64,000 nucleotides of DNA from Burkholderiales bacterium (lineage in GTDB: Bacteria > Pseudomonadota > Gammaproteobacteria > Burkholderiales > SG8-41). The notes beneath the pieces were generated by a model. It saw nothing but the letters and a program-made list of their open reading frames with translations. It was not told the DNA's origin and did no database searches. The position numbers and the translations under genes were made by a program. Position 1 is the first letter of the stretch, and each line of letters begins with the position of its first letter. The stretch covers positions 2,303 through 66,302 of the forward strand of contig JAYTWR010000199.1 of assembly GCA_043743335.1 (NCBI GenBank). Reading direction: 5' to 3'. Positions 8,339 to 49,610 of the stretch are shown piece after piece.

Positions 8339-10903
8339 TCAGGCTGCCTTGCGCGCCCTGGGCGCTTTCTTGGCGGCTGGCGCGGGCTTTTTCGCTTTCG
8401 CCGCTGTCGCTGTCTTGCCCCCCGCCTTAGCCTCACGCGGCGCAAACTCAAACGACACCTTGCCCTCCGCCCCGCGCGCCAAAAACGCTGAGAAAGGACG
8501 CCCCTTCTTGCTGATAAATTTATGCAGCAAATCCGTCTTGCCTTCTTTCAAAAGCTTTACCACCTGCTCCGGCTCTATATTGCGCTGAAGAATGATTTTG
8601 CCGGTGCGGAAATCGCAGGTGCGCGGCTGTGCAGCGGATTTTTCGCACACATAAGCCATGCCATGGTCGTAGACCTGACTGCCGCACTTGGGGCACGTGC
8701 CCATGGGTTCTTTTCCACTGAAATCGACGGGCTCGGCGTTTTCGCCGCCGCCTTGGCCGAAATCAAATTCAAACTTGAACTCATCGGTGAGCTTGATGAC
8801 GGCGGCGAACGGGCGCCCCAAGCGGCTGCGGAAACCCTGTAGCGGGCCGATGCTCTTTTTGACAAAAAGTTCGTCGATTTCCGCCGGTTCAAACTGCCGC
8901 CCGGCGAGGATGCGCCACAGCGAAAACTCACATTTGTCGCACTGGAATTTTTTGTAATTTTCTTTCACGGTGCCACCACACGACGGGCACTTGCCCTGCA
9001 ACGTGGCGTAATCGCCGGGCACGGTTTCACTTTCGTGCGCCTTGGCGCGCTCGACGATGTGGCGAGTCATTTTGGCGATTTCCTTCATGAAGGTATCGCG
9101 CTTTAACTTGCCTTGCTCCATTTCCTTTAACTTGAATTCCCACTCGCCGGTCATTTCGGGCGATGCCAACTCAGGAATTTCCAACCCGCGCAACAGCGTG
9201 ATCAGTGAAAACGCTTTAGGCATGGCTTGTAGTTCGCGCCCATTGCGGATGACGTATTCTTCAGCAAGCAGCTTTTCGATAATGACCGCGCGCGTGGCTG
9301 GCGTGCCGAGGCCGCGTTCTTTCATGGCGTCGCGCAGTTCTTCGTCTTCCACCAGTTTGCCCGCACCTTCCATTGCCGAAAGCAGCGTGGCTTCGTTAAA
9401 GCGCGCGGGCGGCTTGGTTTGCGTGGCGAGCACGGTGATGTCTTCGGTTTTGGCCTTCTCGCCTTTTTTCACCGCCACCAGATTGGGCGAGTCGCCGTCT
9501 TCCGCAGCGGCTTTGCCGTGCACTTCCAGCCAGCCGGCGTTGACCAGCACTTTGCCTTCGCTTTTGAAGGCCTCTTTTTCGACGCGCGTGATGCGCGTGG
9601 TCACCAAATATTCCGCGCTCGGATAAAACACCGCGAGGAACTGGCGCACCACCAAGTCGTACAATTTTTGCTCAACTTCGTTGAGCGCCTTGGGTGCCTG
9701 CGGGGTCGGGATAATCGCAAAGTGGTCTGAAATTTTTGCGTTATTAAAAATGCGCTTGTTGGGCTTGACCCAACCTTGCTTTAAAATCTTTTTCGCCAAG
9801 GGTGCGTACGGCGTGCCCGACATTTCTTCGAGCGTGGTTTTTACCGTATCCAGATAATCTTCCGGCAGTGCGCGAGCATCCGTCCGCGGGTAGGTTAGTA
9901 CTTTGTGTTTTTCGTACAGCGACTGCGCAATGGACAGCGTGGTGCGTGCACTGAATCCAAACCGTCCGTTGGCAGCGCGCTGCAAGCTCGTCAAATCAAA
10001 CAACAACGGCGAAGCTTGCGTGGTGGGTTTGCTTTCTTCTTCAATCTCGCCGGGCTTGCCTTCACATTTGACCTTGATCGCCTCGGCGCGTTTGGCGTCC
10101 CAGAGGCGCTCGGCACGCAGGTCAGCTTCGGGCTCGCCTGCTTTGGCGTCGTCCTTCGGGTCTTTCTTTGCCTTGGCGAATTTCTCGTCGATCCAGCGGC
10201 CTGCGTATTGGCCTTCGGTAACGCCAAATGTGCCGTGTACTTCCCAATAATCTTTCGGCACGAAGCGTTTGATTTTCTCTTCGCGCTCAACCAAGATCGC
10301 CAGCGTCGGCGTTTGCACGCGGCCCACGGGCGTTTTGTGAAAGCCGCCGCTCTTTGAGTTAAACGCGGTCATCGCGCGCGTGCCATTGATACCCACCAGC
10401 CAGTCGGATTCCGACCGGCAAATCGCGGCATCGGCCAGCGGACGCATTTCTTCGTCAGTGCGCAGGTGCTTGAAGCCTTCCTTGATTGAGCCGGCGGTCA
10501 TGGATTGCAACCACAGCCGCTTGACCGGTTTTTTGCTACCGGCGTGGCTGGCGATGTAGCGGAAAATCAGCTCGCCTTCGCGCCCGGCGTCGCAGGCGTT
10601 GATGACGCCGGTGACATCTTTGCGCTTTAATAATTTGGTCAGCAGCTTCAGGCGCGGTTCGGATTTCTCGATCGGCAGCAGATCAAAATGCGGCGGAATC
10701 ACCGGCAGGTTGGCAAACGACCATTTGCCGCGTTTGACCTCGAATTCGTCCGGCACGGCAATTTGCACCAAGTGGCCGACGGCCGAGGACAACACAAAAT
10801 CGTCACTTTCAAAGTAATCATCATGGCGCTTAAAGCCACCCAGCACGCGCGCAATATCGCCGGCAACTGAGGGCTTCTCAGCGATAATTAGTTGTTTTGA
10901 CAT
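8339..10903 (-). CDS. topB: DNA topoisomerase III
   Basis: IIAEKPSVA, NACDAGREGE, GRVQTPTL, LTYPRTD motifs and C-terminal Zn ribbons; next to dprA. Confidence 0.95.
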   Translation of the reverse strand: MSKQLIIAEKPSVAGDIARVLGGFKRHDDYFESDDFVLSSAVGHLVQIAVPDEFEVKRGKWSFANLPVIPPHFDLLPIEKSEPRLKLLTKLLKRKDVTGVINACDAGREGELIFRYIASHAGSKKPVKRLWLQSMTAGSIKEGFKHLRTDEEMRPLADAAICRSESDWLVGINGTRAMTAFNSKSGGFHKTPVGRVQTPTLAILVEREEKIKRFVPKDYWEVHGTFGVTEGQYAGRWIDEKFAKAKKDPKDDAKAGEPEADLRAERLWDAKRAEAIKVKCEGKPGEIEEESKPTTQASPLLFDLTSLQRAANGRFGFSARTTLSIAQSLYEKHKVLTYPRTDARALPEDYLDTVKTTLEEMSGTPYAPLAKKILKQGWVKPNKRIFNNAKISDHFAIIPTPQAPKALNEVEQKLYDLVVRQFLAVFYPSAEYLVTTRITRVEKEAFKSEGKVLVNAGWLEVHGKAAAEDGDSPNLVAVKKGEKAKTEDITVLATQTKPPARFNEATLLSAMEGAGKLVEDEELRDAMKERGLGTPATRAVIIEKLLAEEYVIRNGRELQAMPKAFSLITLLRGLEIPELASPEMTGEWEFKLKEMEQGKLKRDTFMKEIAKMTRHIVERAKAHESETVPGDYATLQGKCPSCGGTVKENYKKFQCDKCEFSLWRILAGRQFEPAEIDELFVKKSIGPLQGFRSRLGRPFAAVIKLTDEFKFEFDFGQGGGENAEPVDFSGKEPMGTCPKCGSQVYDHGMAYVCEKSAAQPRTCDFRTGKIILQRNIEPEQVVKLLKEGKTDLLHKFISKKGRPFSAFLARGAEGKVSFEFAPREAKAGGKTATAAKAKKPAPAAKKAPRARKAA

Positions 10904-16983: not shown

Positions 16984-19220
16984 TGCAAGCCGCCTCCGCC
17001 CCGCTGGGTGCCGCCCCACCCTCCAAGCGACGGCGCTACGCCATCGTGCTGCTGGTGGGCTTAGGCGCGGTGGGATTGTTTCTGCTCGCCACCGCCAGCG
17101 CCAGCACCGCGCTGCTGGCCGAACATTATCAAGCGCTTTTGATCGTTAACGGCGCTATCGCCGCCTTGCTCGCCGCGCTGGTGATACGCCAGTTAATGAT
17201 GCTGCGGCGACGTCTGAAGGCCGGCATGTTCGGTGCCAAGCTCACACTGCGGCTGGTGCTGCTGCTGTCGATGATGGCCATCGTGCCCGGCGTATTGCTG
17301 TACGGCATGTCGATGCAGTATTTGGGCCGCAGCATTGAATCTTGGTTCGATGTCAAAGTGGACAAGGCGCTGGAAGGCGGATTGAAGCTCAGTCAGGATG
17401 TGCTCGACAACCTGTTGAAAGACCTCAAAGGCAAGGCCACCGCGATGGCCTTGCAACTGACCACGCGCCCGGCGGCCGAGCATGCCTTAGTGCTCAACAC
17501 CCTGCGCGAGCAGGCCGGTGCGCACGAGGCCACGCTTTACACCGTGCGCGGTAAAGTGATTGCCACCGCTGGCGGCACGAGCGCCAGCGTGGTGCCGGAG
17601 GCACCGCCAGCCGAAGCCCTGCGCCTGCTGCGCACGCAGCAAACGTACGCCGTGGCCGATGCCACACCGGATCGTGGCCTGTTGCTGCGCGTGGTCACGC
17701 CGGTCAATCTGCTGTCGCTGGCGGACGAGGGGCGCGCCCTGCAGCTCATTTACATCGTGCCGCAGCGCTTGGCGCAAAACGCCGAGACGGTGCAGTCGGG
17801 TTACCGCGAATATCAGGAACTGGTGGTCGGGCGGCTCGGCTTGAAGCGGCTCTATGGTCTTACGCTGACGCTAACGCTGCTGCTCGCGCTGCTAGCGGCG
17901 CTGGCGGCAGCCATTTATTTGTCAGAGGAACTCTCTGCACCGCTGAATGCCTTGGTCGAAGGCACGCGTGCCGTGGCGCAGGGTGATTTCAGCCGCCGCG
18001 CGGCGGTGGCCAGCCGCGATGAGCTCGGCCAATTGACACAATCCTTCAACAGCATGACGCACCAGCTCGAAGACGCGCGCAGCGAGGCTGAGCGCAACCA
18101 GGCCGCTGTCAACAAATCCAAGGTGTTTCTGGAAAGCATTCTGGCTCACTTGTCAGCCGGCGTGCTGGTGTTCGACGACACACTCACGCTGCAAAGCGCC
18201 AACCCCAGCGCCACGGCAATCCTTGGGCTGCAAAGCAACGCCCTGCTCAATCTTAAGGCTGCACAGTGGGGCAGCATCGATGAAACCCTGCGCGTGCTGA
18301 GTCTGGAAATTCAGGCGGGCTTTGCCGAAGCGGCGGGTGAAGAATGGGAACGGCAGGTCGTGCGCACGCTACCTACCGGTGAACAACAACTACTGCTGCG
18401 CGGCAAACCCTTGCCCCAAGGTATTGGTGGTATCGGTAACGCTGCTGCCAATGCGGGCTGCGTGGTGGTGTTCGACGACGTGACCGACGTGTTGCAGGCG
18501 CAACGCGATGCGGCATGGGCCGAAGTCGCGCGGCGCCTCGCGCATGAAATCAAAAACCCGCTGACGCCCATTCAATTATCCGCCGAACGCCTACAGATGA
18601 AGCTCGCGTCCAAGTTAGATGAAAACGATGCCAGCATGCTGGGCCGGTCAACGCAGACCATCGTCAATCAGGTGGCGGCGTTAAAACGCATGGTGGATGC
18701 GTTTAGCCAGTATGCGCGCGCGCCCGATCCCTCGATGCGCGAACTCGATCTGAATTCACTGGTGCATGAAGTGCTCACGCTTTATGAATCATCGCTGGGT
18801 TCCAGCATCAGGCTCGACCTAGCACACGCGTTGCCGCTGATTGTGGGCGACGCCGCGCAACTGCGGCAGGTCATCCACAACCTGCTGCAAAACGCGCAGG
18901 ATGCCTTGGGTACCGCAAGTGACACCCCCGAACCGCGCATCACCGTCACCAGCGCAACGGGCGACGGGTCAATCCGCTTTAGCGTCACCGACAACGGCAG
19001 CGGCTTTCCTGAACACTTGATGCGGCGCGCCTTTGAGCCGTATGTCACCACCAAGAAAAAGGGCACGGGCCTTGGTTTGGTGATCGTCAAAAAAATTATC
19101 GAAGAGCACGGCGGCCAGGTGGCCATCAGCAATGTCGAGCCGCACGGCGCGCGCGTGCTGATCACACTGCCGGTGCCGGCGTCCGCGCTGCGCTCTGTGC
19201 GCCAACGCACGGCGGCTTGA
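16980..19220 (+). CDS. ntrY: NtrY-like HAMP/PAS sensor histidine kinase
   Basis: AWAEVARRLAHEIKNPLTPIQLSAERL H-box plus N/G boxes; ATG at 16980 overlaps the upstream stop. Confidence 0.88.
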   Translation: MMQAASAPLGAAPPSKRRRYAIVLLVGLGAVGLFLLATASASTALLAEHYQALLIVNGAIAALLAALVIRQLMMLRRRLKAGMFGAKLTLRLVLLLSMMAIVPGVLLYGMSMQYLGRSIESWFDVKVDKALEGGLKLSQDVLDNLLKDLKGKATAMALQLTTRPAAEHALVLNTLREQAGAHEATLYTVRGKVIATAGGTSASVVPEAPPAEALRLLRTQQTYAVADATPDRGLLLRVVTPVNLLSLADEGRALQLIYIVPQRLAQNAETVQSGYREYQELVVGRLGLKRLYGLTLTLTLLLALLAALAAAIYLSEELSAPLNALVEGTRAVAQGDFSRRAAVASRDELGQLTQSFNSMTHQLEDARSEAERNQAAVNKSKVFLESILAHLSAGVLVFDDTLTLQSANPSATAILGLQSNALLNLKAAQWGSIDETLRVLSLEIQAGFAEAAGEEWERQVVRTLPTGEQQLLLRGKPLPQGIGGIGNAAANAGCVVVFDDVTDVLQAQRDAAWAEVARRLAHEIKNPLTPIQLSAERLQMKLASKLDENDASMLGRSTQTIVNQVAALKRMVDAFSQYARAPDPSMRELDLNSLVHEVLTLYESSLGSSIRLDLAHALPLIVGDAAQLRQVIHNLLQNAQDALGTASDTPEPRITVTSATGDGSIRFSVTDNGSGFPEHLMRRAFEPYVTTKKKGTGLGLVIVKKIIEEHGGQVAISNVEPHGARVLITLPVPASALRSVRQRTAA

Positions 19221-41066: not shown

Positions 41067-42572
41067 ATGCTTGATACCGTCACCAAACGCCGCATCGACA
41101 CCGCCCGCGATATTCTCGTCGGCAAAGTGCCCGACCCCAAATCGCAGGTGGAGCAGATTACGATCGCGCTGATCTACAAATTCATGGACGACATGGACGC
41201 CGAGGCCGAAGAACTCGGCGGCAAACGCAAATTCTTCACGAATGAATTTGCGCGTTACGGCTGGGCCAAATTGATGAGCCCCAGCCTTGGCGGCCACGAA
41301 ATGCTCGGCCTCTATGGCGAAGGCATCGCGAAAATGCCGGAGAACCCGGGCATCCCGCCGTTGTTCCGCGACATCTTCAAAAACGCCTACCTGCCGTACC
41401 GTGACCCGGAAACGCTCAAGGCCTTTCTCAAGATCATTAACGAATTCACCTACGACCATTCCGAGCGGCTGGGCGACGCCTTTGAATACCTGCTCTCCGT
41501 GCTGGGCAGTCAGGGCGATGCCGGGCAGTTCCGCACGCCGCGCCACATCATTGATTTTATGGTGAAAATTGTCGATCCGAAAAAGGGCGATGTAGTGCTC
41601 GACCCGGCCTGCGGCACGGCGGGCTTCCTGATCTCCGCGTACAAACACATCCTCAAAGCCAACAGCACTTCTCCCCTCGCCCTCCGGGACAAGGGAACAC
41701 TTGAAGCGAAGCAGAGGGGCGGGGGTGAGGGAAACGGAGTGAGATCAGGCGACTTGCTAACCCCCGACGACAAAGGCCGCCTCGCGCAAAACTTCAAGGG
41801 CTACGACATCTCGCCCGACATGGTGCGCCTGTCGCTGGTGAACTTGTATCTGCACGGTTTTACCGATCCGCACATCGTCGAATACGACACCCTCACCTCA
41901 GAAGAGCGGTGGAACGAAACCGCCGATGTAATCCTCGCCAATCCGCCGTTTATGTCGCCCAAAGGCGGTATCAAACCGCACAAACGTTTTTCGATCCAGG
42001 CCAAGCGCAGCGAAGTGCTGTTCGTCGATTACATGGCCGAGCACCTCACTCCCAACGGCCGCGCTGGCATCATCGTGCCCGAAGGCATCATCTTCAATAA
42101 CAATAGCGCCTACACGCAACTGCGCAAAATGCTGGTGGAAAACAGCCTTGTTGCCGTGGTGTCGCTGCCAGCAGGCGTTTTCAACCCCTACTCCCCAGTC
42201 AAAACGTCGATTCTGATTCTCGACAAAGCGCTGGCCAAACAGGCGCAGACTATCGCGTTTTTCAAGATTGAGAACGACGGATTCGGCCTTGGTGCGCAGC
42301 GGCGGGCGATTGAGAAGAATGATTTGCCAGCAGTGCAGGCGGAACTCGATGCCTATTTGCAAACGTTGCGCAGCGACCGACCTTTAGAACCCTCTCCCTC
42401 CGGGAGAGGGCAGGGTGAGGGAGAGCAGTTGAGCTGCGGCCTGATCGTGTCAAAAGAGAAGATCGCGGCGAATGGGGATTACAACCTGAGCGGGGAGCGG
42501 TATGGTGATCAGCCTCGCCTACTTCAAGCAGAGTGGCCGATTGTTCGCTCGGAGAAATTTCCACGTTTATGA
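41067..42572 (+). CDS. hsdM: Type I N6-adenine methyltransferase; probably the 5' part of a frameshifted M-S fusion
   Basis: GQFRTPRHII, DPACGTAGFL, NPPF, IIVPEG and YNLSGERY motifs. Confidence 0.9.
   Translation: MLDTVTKRRIDTARDILVGKVPDPKSQVEQITIALIYKFMDDMDAEAEELGGKRKFFTNEFARYGWAKLMSPSLGGHEMLGLYGEGIAKMPENPGIPPLFRDIFKNAYLPYRDPETLKAFLKIINEFTYDHSERLGDAFEYLLSVLGSQGDAGQFRTPRHIIDFMVKIVDPKKGDVVLDPACGTAGFLISAYKHILKANSTSPLALRDKGTLEAKQRGGGEGNGVRSGDLLTPDDKGRLAQNFKGYDISPDMVRLSLVNLYLHGFTDPHIVEYDTLTSEERWNETADVILANPPFMSPKGGIKPHKRFSIQAKRSEVLFVDYMAEHLTPNGRAGIIVPEGIIFNNNSAYTQLRKMLVENSLVAVVSLPAGVFNPYSPVKTSILILDKALAKQAQTIAFFKIENDGFGLGAQRRAIEKNDLPAVQAELDAYLQTLRSDRPLEPSPSGRGQGEGEQLSCGLIVSKEKIAANGDYNLSGERYGDQPRLLQAEWPIVRSEKFPRL
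41671..41731. repeat. REP-like CCCCTC...GAGGGG palindromic element inside hsdM, copy 1
   Basis: CTCCCCTCGCCCTCCGGGA...GAGGGGCGGGGGTGAGGG, read in frame as SPLALRDKGTLEAKQRGGGEG. Confidence 0.65.
42390..42421. repeat. REP-like palindromic element inside hsdM, copy 2
   Basis: CCCTCTCCC-TCC-GGGAGAGGG-CAGGGTGAGGG, read in frame as PSPSGRGQGEG. Confidence 0.75.
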
Positions 42573-43717
42573 CTGGCGGGACGCCCACTTCAACGGTAGC
42601 GGAGTATTACGAAAACGGAACTGTACCGTGGTTGGTGTCAGGTGATATTCACGGATTTGAGATTTGGAACTGCGATAAACGTATTACTCAGAAGGCAGTA
42701 GATAACTCAAATGCCCGAGTCCTGCCAAAAAACAGCGTCTTGATTGCACTGAATGGGCAAGGAAAAACTCGCGGGACGGTTGCATTGCTACGAATGGAAG
42801 GGGCTACCTGCAATCAATCGCTAGTCGCGATTACGCCGTTACAGCCGATACGTGCCCTCGCGGAATTTATCTTTCTGGTGTTGCGTTCAATGTATGCCGA
42901 CATCCGCGCGTTAACGGGGGATACTGAACGAAGCGGCCTGAACATGCCGATCTTGAGGGGCATTCAAATCCCGCTGCCACCACTGGATGTGCAGAAGGAA
43001 ATCGTGGCGGAGATCGAGGGTTACCAGAAAGTCATCAACGGCGCCCGCGCCGTCCTCGATAACTACCGCCCCCACATTCCCATCCACCCGGACTGGCCGA
43101 TGGCAGCCGTTGCCGAAGTGAGCCTAGTTAATCCGAAAAAATCGGAAGTAGCTGATCTTGATACTGCAACGGTCGTTTCATTCGTTCCGATGGCGGATGT
43201 TGGTGAGAACGCTATGTACTTTGAGCCGCAAGGCACGAAGCGTTTGGATGAAGTTACTACAAGCTACACATATTTCAAAGATGGCGACGTTCTGATTGCC
43301 AAGGTTACTCCGTGCTTTGAAAACGGTAAGGCTGGCATCGCTCGGGGTTTGCATAACGGCGTCGGGTTTGGATCAAGCGAGTTCTATGTTCTTAGACCTA
43401 CAGCTACCGTGTTGGCTGAGTGGCTGTTCATATGTGTGACAACCCCGACCTTCCGCGCATTTGCGACTGCGCAGATGACAGGAACGGGCGGATTACAGCG
43501 GGTTCCACGAGCGGTTGTAGAGAATTATCGAATTCCGTTGCCGCCGTTAGATATGCAACAACAAATCGTCGCCGAAATCGAAGTCGAGCAGCGGCTGGTC
43601 GCCGCCAACCGCGAACTGATTGCCCGCTTCGAGAAAAAAATTCAGGCCACGCTGGCGCGTGTGTGGGGTGAGAACGCATTAACCATGCCCGCGCAACCAC
43701 TGGATGCTGCCGCATAG
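42533..43717 (+). CDS. hsdS: Type I specificity subunit with two TRDs; -1 frame relative to hsdM
   Basis: LGEI...GGTP start of TRD1, two IPLPPLDxQ.xIVAEIE conserved regions, KVTPCFENGK in TRD2. Confidence 0.88.
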   Translation: MADCSLGEISTFMTGGTPTSTVAEYYENGTVPWLVSGDIHGFEIWNCDKRITQKAVDNSNARVLPKNSVLIALNGQGKTRGTVALLRMEGATCNQSLVAITPLQPIRALAEFIFLVLRSMYADIRALTGDTERSGLNMPILRGIQIPLPPLDVQKEIVAEIEGYQKVINGARAVLDNYRPHIPIHPDWPMAAVAEVSLVNPKKSEVADLDTATVVSFVPMADVGENAMYFEPQGTKRLDEVTTSYTYFKDGDVLIAKVTPCFENGKAGIARGLHNGVGFGSSEFYVLRPTATVLAEWLFICVTTPTFRAFATAQMTGTGGLQRVPRAVVENYRIPLPPLDMQQQIVAEIEVEQRLVAANRELIARFEKKIQATLARVWGENALTMPAQPLDAAA

Positions 43718-43782
43718 TTAAATTATTCAATAAAAACAGATAGTTACAATAAGGCTCCGCTGCTTGCGGGCTACTGCCCGCC

Positions 43783-44280
43783 TTATTTCTTGTGCTGGCG
43801 CAGTTGGCGTTCCACTTCGTCCCAAGGCAGGCGCCTGCCCGCCGCCTTCATTTTTGCGTAAGCGGTCTCGGCCTGTTTGACCGTCAATAACTTTCCGTCG
43901 ATCAGTTGCCCAATGAGCCACAAGGTGCCATGTACAGTGATTTTTTCGGCCTTTGCAACAAGGCGCAATTTTGCGTCGCCGGTGAGCAGGGTGGTTTTCT
44001 CCTGCCACGCGAGCGCGAGCGCCAGCAGATCGTTGATGCTGGCGCCGCTGGTTGCGTGCTTCTCGATCAGCGAGCCTGCGTGCACAACGGTTGCCGGCGA
44101 CAATTCGATACACTTCAAACCCAGCGCCGTCAGGTCGGAATGGGCAGCGCGCAACTCTTCTTCGTAGAGGGTGTCCGGCACGGCAAAGGTCACGTTCAGA
44201 CGGAACATCGGGTGAACGATGCCGCCGGTTTCCATATCGATCAGAATGTTGGCATCACTGATCAGCAGCCGTTGCGTCAC
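43783..44280 (-). CDS. PIN-domain protein (putative RNase toxin)
   Basis: ISDANILID, SINDLLALALA, LLTGDAKLR and VHGTLWL motifs; overlaps the upstream peptidase gene. Confidence 0.85.
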   Translation of the reverse strand: MTQRLLISDANILIDMETGGIVHPMFRLNVTFAVPDTLYEEELRAAHSDLTALGLKCIELSPATVVHAGSLIEKHATSGASINDLLALALAWQEKTTLLTGDAKLRLVAKAEKITVHGTLWLIGQLIDGKLLTVKQAETAYAKMKAAGRRLPWDEVERQLRQHKK

Positions 44281-45319
44281 TTTGCATGTTCCGTTCTTTT
44301 TGGAATTGTGTGAGCGGCTTGCGCAGTAATTCAGCGGCCTTGGATTCGCTGATCAAATCTTGCCCGAGCGCGCGATACACCAGTTGTGCGAAGAGTTGAG
44401 GCTTTTCCTTGGGATAGGCATCGCCGGGTTCAACCTTGGTCCAACGTCGCACGGCGAAGTACTTGCGCATGGCGATGTAACGATGTTCCGACAGAATGCC
44501 GAGATCCTTGGCGCGGTGCATCCAGCCTTGCATGCTTAGTCCGTAGGCGTGCTTCAGTGCTGCCAATTCCTGCGGTTCGAGCCAGTCACGCCGTTCGCCG
44601 AGTTCCTTGCGAACCTCGGATCGGGGTACCAGAAACGCACCGGCAAAACGATTGGACGCCGCTTCAATGGCAATGTTGTCGCCCAACCGGCCCTGCAACA
44701 CGAGGTGGCCCAACTCGTGCGCCAAGGTGAATCGCTGACGGTCGCCGGGCGCCTGCGCGCTGACCGCGACAATGGGAGTGCCGTCTACCTTGCAGGCCAG
44801 ACCGTCGAAATTTCCGGGGATGGCATCGGACTGAATGACTTTGATCCCGCGTTCTTCGAGCATGTCGATGACAACAGGAATGGGGTCTACGCCAAGGTTC
44901 CATGCGGTGCGCAGTTTCAGCGCCATGTCCTCGATCTGATCGAAGGACGCTACGTGCTTCGGCAGGCTGGCCGGCAATTTGAATGTCTCGACCGGGCCGT
45001 TGGGCAGAAATTGTTCCAGTTCGATGAAACGTTCAAGTTGTTCGATCGCATCGCCCTTGATCTGGTCGAGCGTTTTGCCGCGAAGTTTTGAATGCTTGCG
45101 GTAATTCACGTCCCGCAGTTCGACTTTCACCGGGCGAAAAAAATACTCTGTGCGTACGCCCAAGGCCTTCGCCAGCCCGAGCAGCACACTGGACGAGGGT
45201 ATGGATTTGCCGGTCTCGTACTTTGAGATTGCCATGGCGGTTACCTCAACGCGTTCCGCGAGCGCGCGCAGGGAAAGGCCGACTGCGGTTCGTGCCTGTT
45301 TGATCCGATCTCCGATCAT
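44255..45319 (-). CDS. Xre HTH fused to ImmA/IrrE (M78) metallopeptidase
   Basis: IKQARTAVGLSLRALAERVEVTAMAISKYETG HTH; RQRFTLAHELGH (HExxH) and EAASNRFAGAFLVP; ATG 45319 after GGTGAAGG. Confidence 0.93.
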   Translation of the reverse strand: MIGDRIKQARTAVGLSLRALAERVEVTAMAISKYETGKSIPSSSVLLGLAKALGVRTEYFFRPVKVELRDVNYRKHSKLRGKTLDQIKGDAIEQLERFIELEQFLPNGPVETFKLPASLPKHVASFDQIEDMALKLRTAWNLGVDPIPVVIDMLEERGIKVIQSDAIPGNFDGLACKVDGTPIVAVSAQAPGDRQRFTLAHELGHLVLQGRLGDNIAIEAASNRFAGAFLVPRSEVRKELGERRDWLEPQELAALKHAYGLSMQGWMHRAKDLGILSEHRYIAMRKYFAVRRWTKVEPGDAYPKEKPQLFAQLVYRALGQDLISESKAAELLRKPLTQFQKERNMQSDATAADQ

Positions 45320-45329
45320 GCCTTCACCG

Positions 45330-45370
45330 TAGTTTACAAAATTGACTATTTTCATATTTTTTGTAAACTA
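45330..45370. promoter_or_regulatory. Perfect 12-bp inverted repeat; probable operator
   Basis: TAGTTTACAAAA-17 bp-TTTTGTAAACTA between divergent genes. Confidence 0.7.
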
Positions 45371-45432
45371 TCCTCTCTGCACGGAAGAAAGTCAATTAAA
45401 TATTTTATATCAATAGGTTAGGAGTTTATCTT

Positions 45433-45606
45433 ATGGCTAAAAACCCTCCCGCAGGAGACAATCACCGCATTGGTGCCGTACGCGACCGCTCGCAGGTATT
45501 CAACCCACACAACCAACGATGGGTCAAGCGCAATGACGATACGGGACGATTTATGGATCAGAAAGCCAACACCGAGCCGTTCAAGGGTGTGCGACGCGAA
45601 AAATAG
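45433..45606 (+). CDS. Small 57-aa basic protein (absent from ORF track)
   Basis: AGGAG SD, then ATG; MAKNPPAGDNHRIGAVRDRSQVFNPHNQRWVKRNDDTGRFMDQKANTEPFKGVRREK; TAG at 45604-45606. Confidence 0.8.
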   Translation: MAKNPPAGDNHRIGAVRDRSQVFNPHNQRWVKRNDDTGRFMDQKANTEPFKGVRREK

Positions 45607-45779
45607 ACGTGCCGGCGAATCGTTAGATGCAGTGTGACTTCTTCGCGCGGAGAATCGCGCGGGTGGCATCGGCGTTGGAATAAGGTGAACAGGTTCAGGA
45701 TATCGACTGCCTGGCTTCCGATAGCCGTTGTACGAGCGGGCTATGATAGCCACCCAAAATGATTTGATACTGGCTTCCG

Positions 45780-46853
45780 ATGATCCGACTGATGCAAGGC
45801 GATCTGCTCAAACAGGACGATGTTGACGCCATCGTCAACACGGTCAATTGCGTAGGCGTGATGGGTAAGGGTATAGCGCTACAGTTCAAAAACAAGTGGC
45901 CTGCCAACAATCAAGTCTACGAGTTGGCGTGCAAAGCCGGGCAGGTGAAGCTCGGCCACATGTTTGTGTTTGACTCGGGCGGTTTGGTAAAGCCCAATTT
46001 CATCATCAATTTCCCGACCAAGGGACATTGGCGTACCAAGTCCGACATTAAGTCGATTCAGGATGGGTTGGCAGATTTGGTGAAACAGGTGAAGCGGTTG
46101 AAAATTAAATCCCTTGCAATTCCCCCACTGGGTTGTGGCAATGGCGGATTGGACTGGGACGACGTGCGGCCCTTGATCGCGGATGCGTTTGCACAACTGC
46201 CGGATATAGAAGTCCGGTTGTTTGAGCCTGTGGGCGCGCCTGCCGCCAAAACCATGGAAGTGCGTACGCCGAAGCCGAAAATGACGCCAGGGCGCGCCGC
46301 GATCCTCAGGGTGCTGGATACCTACCGCGCTTTAGGATACGGGCTATCGAAGATTGAGGTGCAGAAGCTTGCGTATTTTTTGCAGGAAGCAGGACAAAAA
46401 TTAAAGCTGACTTTTGTTGCACACGAATACGGCCCTTATTCCGATCAACTGCGCCACGTGCTTAACAAGATGGAAGGGCACTATATTCGTGGTGTCGGCG
46501 ACGGGGTGGTGGATGCCGAAATAGAGCCGGTGCCTGACGCGCTAACCGAAGCAGATGCGTTTTTGATGCGTGATGACGAAGGCCCAAGTCTGAATCGACG
46601 CGTTGCGAAAGTGGAGCAATTGATAGACGGTTTTCAATCGCCCTATGGCATGGAATTGCTGGCCACGGTTTACTGGGTCACGCAAAACCCGCCTTATGCC
46701 AAAACCCATACCGAGGCGCTGCAAGCAGTGCATCGCTGGAATGAGCGCAAGCGCGAACTGATGCAAGCGGTACACGTCGAGACCGCATGGAATCGCTTGC
46801 GCGAGGAGGGGTGGATATCCGAGCCTGACCTTAAGGCTGCCGCCAGCCATTGA
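45780..46853 (+). CDS. darG: DarG-type macrodomain antitoxin (DNA ADP-ribosyl glycohydrolase)
   Basis: GDLL..VDAIVNTVNCVGVMGKGIALQFK, INFPTKGHW, PPLGCGNGGLDW; C-terminal EVQKLAYFLQ...YGPYS...GMELLATV. Confidence 0.85.
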   Translation: MIRLMQGDLLKQDDVDAIVNTVNCVGVMGKGIALQFKNKWPANNQVYELACKAGQVKLGHMFVFDSGGLVKPNFIINFPTKGHWRTKSDIKSIQDGLADLVKQVKRLKIKSLAIPPLGCGNGGLDWDDVRPLIADAFAQLPDIEVRLFEPVGAPAAKTMEVRTPKPKMTPGRAAILRVLDTYRALGYGLSKIEVQKLAYFLQEAGQKLKLTFVAHEYGPYSDQLRHVLNKMEGHYIRGVGDGVVDAEIEPVPDALTEADAFLMRDDEGPSLNRRVAKVEQLIDGFQSPYGMELLATVYWVTQNPPYAKTHTEALQAVHRWNERKRELMQAVHVETAWNRLREEGWISEPDLKAAASH

Positions 46854-46933: not shown

Positions 46934-48082
46934 ATGATCCGCGACCCCGCCACCTTCCAAATCCTTCTCGACACCATCGCGCGTCTCGTGCGCGACAAGC
47001 TGATCCCGCGCGAAGCCGAAGTAGCCGAGACGGATGAAATCCCCGCCGACATCATGGCCGAGATGCGGCGCATGGGGTTGTTTGGGCTGACGATTCCCGA
47101 AGAATACGGCGGCTTGGGCCTCACCACCGAGGAAGAGGCGCTGACCAGCATGGCCTTGTGCGAGGCCGCGCCCGCGTTTCGCTCGATCATGGGCACGAAC
47201 AACGGCATCGGCGGCATGGGCATCGTAATCGACGGCACAGACGCGCAGAAAAAGCATTATCTGCCGCGCCTCGCGAGTGGCGAGATTATCGGTTCGTTTG
47301 CGTTGACCGAGCCGGGCTCCGGTTCCGATGCGGGTGCGCTGACCACGCGCGCAGAGAGAAACGGCGATCACTACATCGTCAACGGGGCCAAGCGCTACAT
47401 CACCAACGCCCCGGAGGCGAACATTTTTACGCTGATGGCGCGCACGGACCCCAACACCAAAGACGCCAGTGGCGTATCGGCGTTTATCGTTGAACGTGAT
47501 TCGCCGGGCCTGACGGTCGGCAAACCGGATCGCAAAATGGGCCAGCGCGGGTCGCACACTGCGGATGTGATTTTTGACCATGTGCGCGTGCCCGTGGGCA
47601 ACGTCATCGGTGGCAAGGAGGGCATGGGTTTCAAAACCGCGATGAAGGCGTTGGACCGCGCGCGGTTGAACATCGCCTCCGTGTGCGCGGGTGTCGCGCA
47701 GCGCTGTCTGAACGAGGCGCTGGCCTATGCGCGCGAGCGCAAACAATTTGGCAAACCCATCGCCGAGTTTCAATTGATGCAGGCGATGCTGGCGGATTCC
47801 AAAACCGAAATCTACGCCGCACGCAGCATGATTCTTGAAGCCGCACGCAAGCGTGACACGGGGGCGAACATTACGCTGGAGGCCTCGTGTTGTAAGTTGT
47901 TTGCCTCTGAAATGGTGGGCCGCGTCGCCGATCGCGCGGTGCAAATTCACGGCGGTGCGGGTTATATGCAAGAGTATGCGGTGGAGCGGTTGTATCGCGA
48001 CGTGCGTTTGTTCCGTATATTCGAGGGCACTACCCAGATACAGCAATTGGTGATTGCGCGGCATATGTTGCGGGAAGGGTAG
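46934..48082 (+). CDS. Acyl-CoA dehydrogenase
   Basis: FALTEPGSGSD, NGAKRYITN, QIHGGAGY and RIFEGTTQIQ motifs. Confidence 0.95.
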   Translation: MIRDPATFQILLDTIARLVRDKLIPREAEVAETDEIPADIMAEMRRMGLFGLTIPEEYGGLGLTTEEEALTSMALCEAAPAFRSIMGTNNGIGGMGIVIDGTDAQKKHYLPRLASGEIIGSFALTEPGSGSDAGALTTRAERNGDHYIVNGAKRYITNAPEANIFTLMARTDPNTKDASGVSAFIVERDSPGLTVGKPDRKMGQRGSHTADVIFDHVRVPVGNVIGGKEGMGFKTAMKALDRARLNIASVCAGVAQRCLNEALAYARERKQFGKPIAEFQLMQAMLADSKTEIYAARSMILEAARKRDTGANITLEASCCKLFASEMVGRVADRAVQIHGGAGYMQEYAVERLYRDVRLFRIFEGTTQIQQLVIARHMLREG

Positions 48083-48093
48083 CATCAACCCCG

Positions 48094-48604
48094 ATTTACC
48101 ACGGAACACGCCGAACACACGGAAATGACGGAACTTATACATGAAGACGAAACGTATCGTATACGAGGTGCGGTTTTCGAGGTCTATCGCGAAATGGGTT
48201 GTGGATTCCTTGAAGCAGTTTATCAGGAGTGTTTGACGTTGGAGTTTGCTAGGCAGGGCGTGCCATTTGTGGCTCAGAAGGCACTTGCACTCCACTACAA
48301 GGGTGAGAAGTTGTCCCAGACTTTCATCCCTGACTTTGTTTGTTTTGAATCCATAGTTGTCGAAATCAAGGCAGTGAACAAACTCACAAACGATCAGCGC
48401 GCCCAAGTTCACAACTATCTCAAATCCACTGGATTACAGCTGGGACTGCTGGTGAACTTTGGCCACTATCCGAAGGCCGAAGTTGAACGCGTCGTGCGAA
48501 CGTGAGTAGCGAGAGCGTTTTTGGGCCACAATTGCAGATAAAGACGCCAATCGTGAATATCATCTTCAAACGCTTCCGTGTGTTCCGTGTATTCCGTGGT
48601 AAAT
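48094..48604. mobile_element. Candidate element: GxxExxY gene bounded by 31-bp inverted repeats
   Basis: Left arm ATTTACCACGGAACACGCCGAACACACGGAA (48094-48124), right arm TTCCGTGTGTTCCGTGTATTCCGTGGTAAAT (48574-48604); 28/31 complementary. Confidence 0.65.
48125..48505 (+). CDS. GxxExxY protein (PD-(D/E)xK nuclease superfamily)
   Basis: GFLEAVY, PDFVCFESIVVEIKAV, AQVHNYLK and GLLVNFG motifs. Confidence 0.93.
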   Translation: MTELIHEDETYRIRGAVFEVYREMGCGFLEAVYQECLTLEFARQGVPFVAQKALALHYKGEKLSQTFIPDFVCFESIVVEIKAVNKLTNDQRAQVHNYLKSTGLQLGLLVNFGHYPKAEVERVVRT

Positions 48605-48644
48605 GTTTTTGAAGTCGCGTGCCAAAACCTACCAAGCGAGAGAT

Positions 48645-49610
48645 ATGAATAAATTTTGGTTTGCATCCGTTATTTTGTTTTCAGCGGTTTCCGGCGTGAC
48701 GCTGGCCCAACAGTACCCCACCAAACCCATTCGCATGGTTGTGCCGTTCGCGCCCGGCGGCACGGGTGAATTTCTCTCGCGCAGCATCACGCCGCGCATG
48801 GGTGAGCTTATTGGGCAGCCGTTTATTGTGGATTTTCGCGGCGGCGCGGGCACTACGCTGGCTGCGGGGCTGGTGGCAACTGCGCCGGCTGACGGCAATA
48901 CGGTATTGATCCAGACGTTCACCACGCAGGCGATCAATGACAGCCTGTATTCAAAGCTCTCTTACGACACCCGCAAGGATTTCGCCTCCACCGGCTTGAT
49001 TGCGGTGATACCGATTGTGCTGGCCGCCCACCCGTCGCTGCCCGCGCGCAGTGCCCGCGATCTGGCGACGCTGTCCCAAGCGCGCGCCGGCACGCTCAAC
49101 TTTGGCACTGCGGGCATCGGCACGTCATCGCACTTTGCGGTGGAGTTGTTCAAGCTCGCGTCCAAGGCTGATCTCACGCACATCCCATACAAGGGTGCCG
49201 GGCCAGCCACCATTGACGCAATGGCGGGCTTTGTGCCGCTGGTCGCCGATGCGATTACATCGTTAAAGCCGCATCTGGACGGTGGCAAGCTGCGTGGCAT
49301 TGCCATCGGCAGTGCGCAACGCTCTGAAGGCGCGCCGCAGTTAGCGACGTTCGCCGAGTCGGGCTATCCCGGCTTTGAAGCGAGCTCCTGGTGGGGCTTG
49401 CTGGTTCCGGCGCGCACACCGCCGGCGATCATCGCGCGCTTGAATACCGAGCTCAACAAGGCACTGGAAGACGGCGTGGTGCGCAAGCGGCTAATGTCGC
49501 ACGGTGCGACGCTCAAGTACGGCACGCCTGCGCAAGGCGACGAACTGATGAATTCCGAGCGCGACAAGTGGGCGAAAGTGGTCAAGGCCACCGGTGCCCG
49601 TGTAGATTAG
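48645..49610 (+). CDS. Bug/TctC substrate-binding protein
   Basis: YPTKPIRMVVPFAPGG and HIPYKGAG motifs; ATG 48645 gives a signal peptide. Confidence 0.93.
   Translation: MNKFWFASVILFSAVSGVTLAQQYPTKPIRMVVPFAPGGTGEFLSRSITPRMGELIGQPFIVDFRGGAGTTLAAGLVATAPADGNTVLIQTFTTQAINDSLYSKLSYDTRKDFASTGLIAVIPIVLAAHPSLPARSARDLATLSQARAGTLNFGTAGIGTSSHFAVELFKLASKADLTHIPYKGAGPATIDAMAGFVPLVADAITSLKPHLDGGKLRGIAIGSAQRSEGAPQLATFAESGYPGFEASSWWGLLVPARTPPAIIARLNTELNKALEDGVVRKRLMSHGATLKYGTPAQGDELMNSERDKWAKVVKATGARVD

Follow-up and report, generated by a model that had tools for sequence, protein, structure and literature searches.

REPIN-RAYT systems, as set out in the available portion of one account (10.1101/2021.07.10.451892), consist of a single-copy enzyme gene flanked by its own repeat family together with many extragenic, gene-less inverted doublets of about 70-130 bp; several repeat types co-exist, each tied to a clade of the enzyme, the repeats outlast the gene, the systems are rare on plasmids, and the RAYTs, which are HUH tyrosine transposases, are described as vertically inherited. 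TIRtrons, in the accessible parts of PMC3733652 and PMC6006769, carry a Y1 HUH transposase gene (TIRYT) within long terminal inverted repeats that are unrelated to REPs and are dispersed as dimers and clusters, many of them with a GGGGWSAS motif. Bacterial MITEs and insertion sequences are described in the same part of PMC3733652 as having 15-30-bp terminal inverted repeats, gene-carrying and gene-less forms, and a habit of insertion beside coding sequences. The 23S rRNA intervening sequences (IVS) with an S23p/four-helix-bundle ORF are, in the available text of PMC4990558, sporadic low-GC units of ~430-510 nt with a ~30-bp terminal stem and one short ORF. Here we describe a 511-bp element that invites comparison with each of these, and whose single gene encodes a protein of the GxxExxY family (PF13366), for which the accessible section of PMC3424549 lists the function as 'Unknown' and notes 'multiple transfers'; one GxxExxY gene is recorded, in a source available in part, as adjoining a CRISPR reverse transcriptase gene.

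The element lies at 48094-48604 of the window, that is, the whole 64-kb stretch of DNA analysed. Its left arm (48094-48124, + strand) begins 11 nt past the stop codon of the upstream host gene for an acyl-CoA dehydrogenase (acd; 46934-48082, +), which is outside the element, and consists of a short AT-rich outer end followed by three 7-bp cores at 48100-48106, 48109-48115 (degenerate) and 48118-48124. The GxxExxY/PDDEXK_3 gene (48125-48505, +; 126 aa, intact) starts directly after the left arm, with its ATG at 48125, and a 68-bp spacer (48506-48573) leads from its stop to the right arm (48574-48604, -), an inverted copy of the left one. The arms are 31 nt each, 28/31 complementary and 449 nt apart, and the core of each is CACGGAA repeated three times with 2-bp spacing, giving a 9-bp period. 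Nowhere else in the 64-kb window are two inverted segments no more than 1 kb apart matched at 28/31 or better, and the best inverted pair in 20 dinucleotide-preserving shuffles of the window reached 24/31. The coordinates and the shuffle control thus agree with the first-pass annotation, made from the sequence alone, which had described 31-bp arms of about three 9-bp units each, the left one abutting the ATG, around a 511-bp unit. Profile matches likewise agree with its placement of the element between an acyl-CoA dehydrogenase gene and a Bug gene. The latter, a Bug/TctC receptor gene (48645-49610, +), has an in-frame ATG at 48603 that overlaps the right-arm end, and 48645 is the likelier start by congener homology.

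All three genes, acd, GxxExxY and Bug/TctC, are on the + strand, and the GC content of the element is 0.48 vs 0.61 in the neighbour genes. Within the 511 bp we found no other long + strand ORF and no promoter-like site, and the region 47900-48800 gave no Rfam match. The annotation had noted no transposase, and Pfam and NCBIfam scans matched only PF13366 and TIGR04256. As a separate observation, the GxxExxY frame is the acd frame behind a single TAG and is stop-free through the left arm (48080-48127), as it also is in the congener G015, an arrangement expected in one of three cases by chance. The window also holds a small defence-like island beside the operon (41067-46853, ending 80 bp before acd), with type I restriction-modification genes hsdM (41067-42572) and hsdS (42533-43717), a PIN-like gene and an HTH/IrrE-type peptidase gene (43783-45355, - strand) and a macro-domain gene (45780-46853).

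The ORF at 48125-48505 matched TIGR04256 (GxxExxY) with E 1.6e-40 (138 bits against a cut-off of 35) and PF13366 (PDDEXK_3) with E 2.9e-41 (141 bits against a cut-off of 22), and it is the only GxxExxY copy in the source genome (G000). Its predicted structure (pLDDT 94) has a PD-(D/E)xK fold. The best Foldseek rows were Cas4 SSO0001, LHK-Exo and lambda exonuclease (E 1e-3 to 7e-3), VIA-align returned Z scores of at most 7.8 with many ties (Hjc Z 6.2, I-Bth0305I Z 5.3), and a profile search of PDB sequences matched only T7 endonuclease I, with a weak E of 0.35. Since no structural match stands out, the fold gives no substrate; toward a junction-resolvase identity, T7 endonuclease I (E 0.35) and Hjc (Z 6.2, among ties) were weak leads only. 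Among 64 diverse members of the family, E30 was kept in 64, D70 in 63, E80 in 61, and K82, Q94 and Y98 in 64 each. The structure model, the fold matches and the conservation of D70, E80 and K82 therefore uphold the earlier assignment to the PD-(D/E)xK fold, and from the fold and these catalytic-type residues we infer that the protein is probably a nuclease. The median dN/dS was 0.049 in 58 close pairs, indicating purifying selection.

We then examined GxxExxY genes in other genomes. The close relatives were the best 80 of 553 in GTDB; their identity to the query is 59-74%, and between them they bear 17 different phylum labels. Cultured carriers recovered by this search include Mariprofundus erugo and Halochromatium roseum. 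Inverted arms with a score of at least 30 were present in 72 of the 79 scorable loci among these best 80, with the best of 30 shuffles per locus mostly at 19-29 and at 32-38 in three loci. One of the loci, L021, appears to be the G018 locus described below and is therefore not independent of the congener result. The gene was inside one arm pair in 24/80 loci and stood between two hairpins in 11, further layouts comprised intermediates and arrays, and no arms were detected in 3; the layout profile was trained on the same loci, and when run on 429 kb of shuffled sequence it called nothing. Among distant relatives, 67/82 loci had inverted arms, whose units fall into 17 types and recur every 8-11 bp, so that the flanks of GxxExxY genes elsewhere, which the annotation had singled out for comparison, carry such arms in both close and distant loci. 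In addition, arms were present in all 82 typeable metagenome and viral loci. A profile of 200 arms showed a non-palindromic tandem unit ending in AAC/ACC and a sharply defined outer end; the cores were near invariant, and arm mismatches fell on degenerate unit positions. Neighbours were scanned at 43 of the 80 loci: 11 adjoined type I restriction-modification or BREX genes, 6 were at an ABC ATPase/MacB junction, and the rest were diverse or unannotated. GxxExxY genes were found on 8/72,556 plasmids and at 2 IMG/VR loci, and none was found in 50,697 phages. Phyla were intermixed on the GxxExxY protein tree, many forks of which were weak. Of four loci with a four-helix-bundle (TIGR02436) gene, whose product is unrelated and has no nuclease fold, three clearly showed the gene inside inverted arms, here built from different tandem units (7-8 bp), and this kind of packaging is therefore not unique to the nuclease; the loci in question are L313, L314 and L315 (G009, G181), at about 1290-1950.

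In the close clade the repeat unit is CACG[G/A]AA, and its fifth base varies between G and A. The results showed that residue 14 of the protein, an arginine here (codon at 48164-48166, + strand, in predicted helix 1, residues 7-24), follows this base: Arg14 occurred in 40/41 G-type loci and in 0/37 A-type loci, 3 loci without typed arms being left out. Out of sample, in the 82 metagenome and viral loci, the rule held for 20/20 Arg and 58/61 non-Arg proteins, with one misaligned row dropped. Over the combined 162 loci, Arg14 went with G in 61/61 and Met, Gln, Val, Ile, Asn, Thr or Leu with A in 97/101; the rows that break the rule are L043, L203, L243 and L248. On a FastTree tree built without column 14, 10/10 pairs were concordant in 500/500 draws when all branches were used, and the well-supported (starred) branches left 3 independent pairs, all concordant (p 0.25). 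When 13 base-change pairs were scored, on the same data that trained the scores, agreement was 13 for residue 14, 10.7 for residue 4, 10.4 for residue 7, 7.5 for residue 10 and 6.3 for residue 120, and the spacing of residues 4, 7, 10 and 14 suggests one face of a predicted helix. One locus with arginine and G (L055) is sister to two with glutamine and A (L077/L078) at a support of 100/99, and a rare arm end is common to all three. In the wider family Thr10 occurred with G in 25/28 and other residues with A in 27/35, and of 4 starred pairs 2.9 were concordant, with none opposed. The 17 unit types needed 25 changes on the protein tree vs 43 for shuffles, and arm type was predicted by the N-terminal segment in 150/162 loci vs 134/162 by the core, so linkage may contribute to the residue-base match. 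Arginine with guanine, glutamine or asparagine with adenine, and a hydrophobic residue with the thymine methyl group are textbook DNA recognition pairings. The residue-base pairings fit such a recognition code and so would point to DNA as the target; judged from sequence covariation, direct read-out of DNA by helix 1 is likely.

Comparison with congeners showed that the element is inserted at gene junctions. Among 17 congener loci holding the acd 3' end, 2 carry a GxxExxY gene with arms at the junction (G015, in which the gene is frameshifted, and G018) and 15 do not, which supplies the empty sites that the first-pass annotation had proposed to seek in related genomes. Both filled alleles have an extra inner arm in the spacer between gene and right arm, clear in G015 and degenerate in G018. 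Of the 15 alleles without the element, 10 (L003, L004, L006-L010, L015-L017) carry a CGTC-type palindrome motif, of a family described in the available part of PMC3733652, so two repeat families alternate at this one site. As a comparison of shared with independent insertion at the acd junction in G000, G015 and G018, the four-fold site difference between them was 0.56-0.68 for the nuclease gene vs 0.38-0.43 for acd, over only 25-35 sites. No read joint bypassing the element turned up in the four public runs examined, which belong to a single study and of which two may derive from the source sample; contigs drop rare variants. In the genus, each protein clade keeps its own junction and its own repeat unit, namely acd in 3/21 genomes, a branched-chain permease pair in 6, ribF-ileS in 4 and a TPP enzyme-OCD junction in 2, and 5/16 of the GxxExxY genes are broken. 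Viewed by eye (among L103, L107, L113 and L115), the ribF frame appears to enter the left arm at ribF-ileS, and the start codon of the GxxExxY gene at the permease pair is inside the arm, which would make the arms partly protein-coding.

In a second genus, with congeners 78-92% identical, tight stop/start junctions were empty in some species and filled in others, and the filled ones held different repeat-unit types; at one such junction 7/10 congeners were empty and two filled alleles were in opposite orientation. As a side observation, comparison of L329 with L351-L360 (spacers 713-847, 8773-8895 and 18842-18990) marked these junctions as hot spots, where most congeners had an inverted tandem repeat of one family or another, including unit types beyond the search pattern; other spacers were rarely filled. 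Such hot spots could possibly reflect targeting or the replacement of existing hairpins. Target duplications were not evident at filled and empty junctions of the 78-92% identical congeners, where old short ones could have decayed, and in 53 gene-carrying elements the best direct repeat averaged 3.83 nt vs 3.64 nt in mismatched controls. The annotation had seen no obvious target duplication at this locus, and the 53 related elements extend that result.

The repeats also occur apart from the gene. The source genome carries four gene-less hairpins with arms as in the element and 15-31-nt loops, at C133:15693-15763, C133:36594-36677, C143:3874-3960 and C194:24436-24510; around the copy at C133:36594 is a further, degenerate inverted repeat that looks like a GTAG-type REP doublet. 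Congener genomes had 0-62 arm matches each, and their hairpins were absent from the syntenic spacers of G000. Of 85 hairpins scored for context (20 more were unscorable), the flanking genes were co-oriented at 67, convergent at 16 and divergent at 2, and the median distance past the upstream stop was 17 nt. An idea that mini-ORFs running through the hairpins preserve translational coupling was tried and dropped: 3/3 filled alleles at one junction had them, but 11 sense vs 8 antisense were counted among 57 (p 0.6), and a cruder count gave 4 vs 8 of 29.

To relate the repeats to the gene, 401 genomes of the class were sampled, 62 with a GxxExxY gene over the cut-off and 339 without. At least 15 arm matches were found in 35/62 gene-carrying and 27/339 gene-negative genomes (odds ratio 15, from a hand tally in which kin are non-independent); the 312 genomes negative for both gene and arms include an unpublished genome, G077. 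Single genomes reached up to 330 pattern matches. One gene-negative genome, G138, is a single contig at 99% completeness; it yielded 139 arm matches, which fall into four or more types, and no PF13366 match. G328, G345, G181 and G009 also gave no PF13366 match over the cut-off. In the genus of G138, 4/13 genomes have GxxExxY genes, with repeat units that partly match, a pattern that fits gene loss. The source genome itself holds a second hairpin family, CACAGAG/CACCGAG, at ~20 loci (contigs C1, C4, C36, C68, C72, C81, C85, C117, C125, C128, C130, C133, C148, C149, C177, C189, C193 and C202) with no cognate GxxExxY gene in the assembly, and the congeners G012 and G006 carry a gene with this unit type. 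An outer inverted repeat enclosed 13/48 hairpins (control 0.5%). In G009 (L122-L151) a CACGGAA hairpin is nested in a longer repeat that is itself bounded by terminal inverted repeats, which may resemble IS4-group ends, and the composite is in places inside a CACAGAG-type hairpin; many G009 hairpins may be passively carried by this composite repeat. The asymmetric G009 hairpins showed no polarity relative to transcription, about 5 vs 6 when counted by eye on rough ORF calls.

On balance we lean, by a modest measure, towards the 511-bp element being the gene-carrying form of a widespread repeat family, in which the protein would bind the repeat units via helix 1, nick or cut the arms, and so move both the element and the hairpins. 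In such a cycle the protein would bind tandem 9-bp units through its predicted first helix, and the nuclease would nick or cut near the sharply defined outer arm ends. The released or copied arms would insert without target duplication, and inserted copies would persist mainly just past stop codons. The gene may be expressed by read-through from the host operon, with acd the likely supplier of transcription here. It would move between phyla by horizontal transfer, perhaps inside restriction-modification and BREX operons, and would often be lost, leaving orphan hairpin populations. A bolder form of the proposal, to which we give somewhat less than an even chance, is that GxxExxY proteins at large are the mobilising enzymes of cross-phylum miniature elements that do without DDE, HUH, serine or tyrosine chemistry; the enzymes would read unit base 5 through residues 10 and 14 in a simple helix-1 code, cleave where the arms end, and seed hundreds of hairpins at stop/start junctions. 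The annotation had suggested a minimal selfish element analogous to RAYT-REP. The family-wide arms and empty alleles favour this, and the analogy is supported because gene-less hairpins exist, arms are enriched in gene-carrying genomes, and residue and base co-vary; the many hairpin-rich genomes without the gene do not sit with it. Counting against a mobile enzyme are those 27/339 gene-negative arm-rich genomes, the orphan hairpins of G000, the G009 composites and the like packaging of four-helix-bundle genes.

The same annotation had offered a long RNA stem enclosing the gene as its other explanation, and a rival account close to this, which we judge improbable though worth keeping in view, is that the arms are generic packaging for a promoterless gene in an operon, as in the 23S rRNA IVS: the protein would bind the arms for self-regulation, its nuclease would serve, for example, defence, and other mobilisers would spread the hairpins. 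The element RNA does fold with its arms paired (z -3.7), as it must because the arms are complementary, and a stem is thus predicted; a G-U bias test gave no support to an RNA role, with no sense-strand excess: 23 arm pairs gave 7 on the sense strand and 19 on the antisense strand, a skew toward antisense (p 0.03, one of two tests), and 61 local hairpins gave 71 and 60. The arm sequence is also conserved beyond what pairing alone would ask, and there is no Rfam match in the region searched. The gene is co-oriented with both neighbours in 38/66 loci scored on both sides, the four-helix-bundle genes share the design, and the available text of PMC4990558 describes a 28-bp terminal stem in the Coxiella IVS that is cut by RNase III, all of which suit packaging, as does the existence of hairpin-rich genomes without the gene. 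A defence role would be in keeping with the 11/43 scanned loci beside type I restriction-modification or BREX genes, but the PADLOC match was weak and partial (E 0.0046), and self-regulation leaves unexplained why gene-less hairpins, of types that correspond to GxxExxY clades, are dispersed in their hundreds.

Two further accounts seem to us doubtful, each with a small chance of being right. In one, the residue-base match is hitch-hiking: arms and the 5' end of the gene are inherited as a block and cores recombine, and an unrelated enzyme (a RAYT, an IS transposase or host repair) moves the hairpins. That the N-terminal segment is the best predictor of arm type, that 13/48 hairpins sit within an outer inverted repeat, and that a CGTC-type palindrome occupies 10/15 acd junctions without the element all agree with it. 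Yet the concordance is helical (4, 7, 10, 14), with the variable residues 8 and 12 outside the top columns; L055, L082 and L234 have A-type nearest neighbours in their N-terminal segments and nevertheless combine R14 with G arms; both arms, 400 bp apart, change together; and unit base 5 is also followed, in distant clades, by another position on the helix. In the other, an equally slim prospect, the unit is a homing-type element: its nuclease cuts the empty allele of one specific junction, and repair copies the unit in. Homing endonucleases with a PD-(D/E)xK fold are known, one of them (I-Bth0305I, Z 5.3) being listed among the fold matches, and within the genus a given protein clade sits at a single junction and is present there patchily; against homing, one clade turns up across phyla at many junctions unrelated to one another, a single type of gene-less hairpin is present at dozens of junctions in a genome, and the protein co-varies with its own arms, which are absent from the empty allele.

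The locus is one member of a wider gene-repeat family, and the residue-base link is the new result here. In the literature searched, which took in neither most subscription journals nor supplements, we found no account of a link between GxxExxY genes and repeats, and the family appears undescribed. A large protein family of unknown function, present in 62/401 genomes of the class, thereby gains a likely substrate written beside each gene; the association also offers a way of explaining a common class of intergenic hairpins, and the residue-base link makes the gene-repeat idea directly testable via base 5 of the unit and residue 14 of the protein. Should the enzyme move the repeats as well, this would be a second, independently evolved REPIN/RAYT-like system with different chemistry; were the mobilising reading true, the element would be among the smallest self-mobilising units, with a nuclease specificity readable from sequence.

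Among enzymes, the GxxExxY protein shares its fold and its E-D-ExK-QxxxY residues with RecB/Cas4/lambda-exonuclease and restriction-type PD-(D/E)xK nucleases and with resolvases such as T7 endonuclease I and Hjc; it differs from them in being, at 126 aa, a bare catalytic domain plus an N-terminal helix that tracks its own repeats. Integron attC cassettes have AAC/GTT core ends and extrahelical bases and are served by an integron integrase. The outer arm end has A at 0.69, A at 0.91 and C at 0.99 in the profile, this copy reads TAC, and no integrase was found among the immediate neighbours at the 43 scanned of the 80 loci. Like MITEs and insertion sequences, as characterised in the accessible part of PMC3733652, the element has terminal inverted repeats, gene-carrying and gene-less forms and a position beside coding sequences; unlike them it has no transposase domain and no target-site duplication. 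With the 23S rRNA IVS it shares its size, terminal stem, single short ORF, low GC and sporadic occurrence, but it lies at mRNA gene junctions between protein-coding neighbours, its arms are tandem units co-varying with the protein, its product has a nuclease fold, and there is no G-U bias. It resembles the TIRtrons in enclosing a gene within long terminal inverted repeats that are also dispersed as dimers and clusters, and has neither the Y1 HUH transposase nor the GGGGWSAS motif given in the available descriptions. It is like REPIN-RAYT in the single-copy enzyme gene flanked by its own repeats, the many gene-less extragenic doublets of about 70-130 bp, the co-existing repeat types tied to enzyme clades and outlasting the gene, and the rarity on plasmids (8/72,556, with 0 in 50,697 phages); it departs from that system in its PD-(D/E)xK rather than HUH enzyme, in arms of non-palindromic tandem 8-11-bp units without GTAG/CGTC ends, and in the occurrence of proteins 60-74% identical under 17 phylum labels, with phyla intermixed on their tree, against the vertical inheritance reported for RAYTs in the available account. 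By this analogy, the best reading of the locus would be a REPIN/RAYT-like system built on a PD-(D/E)xK nuclease.
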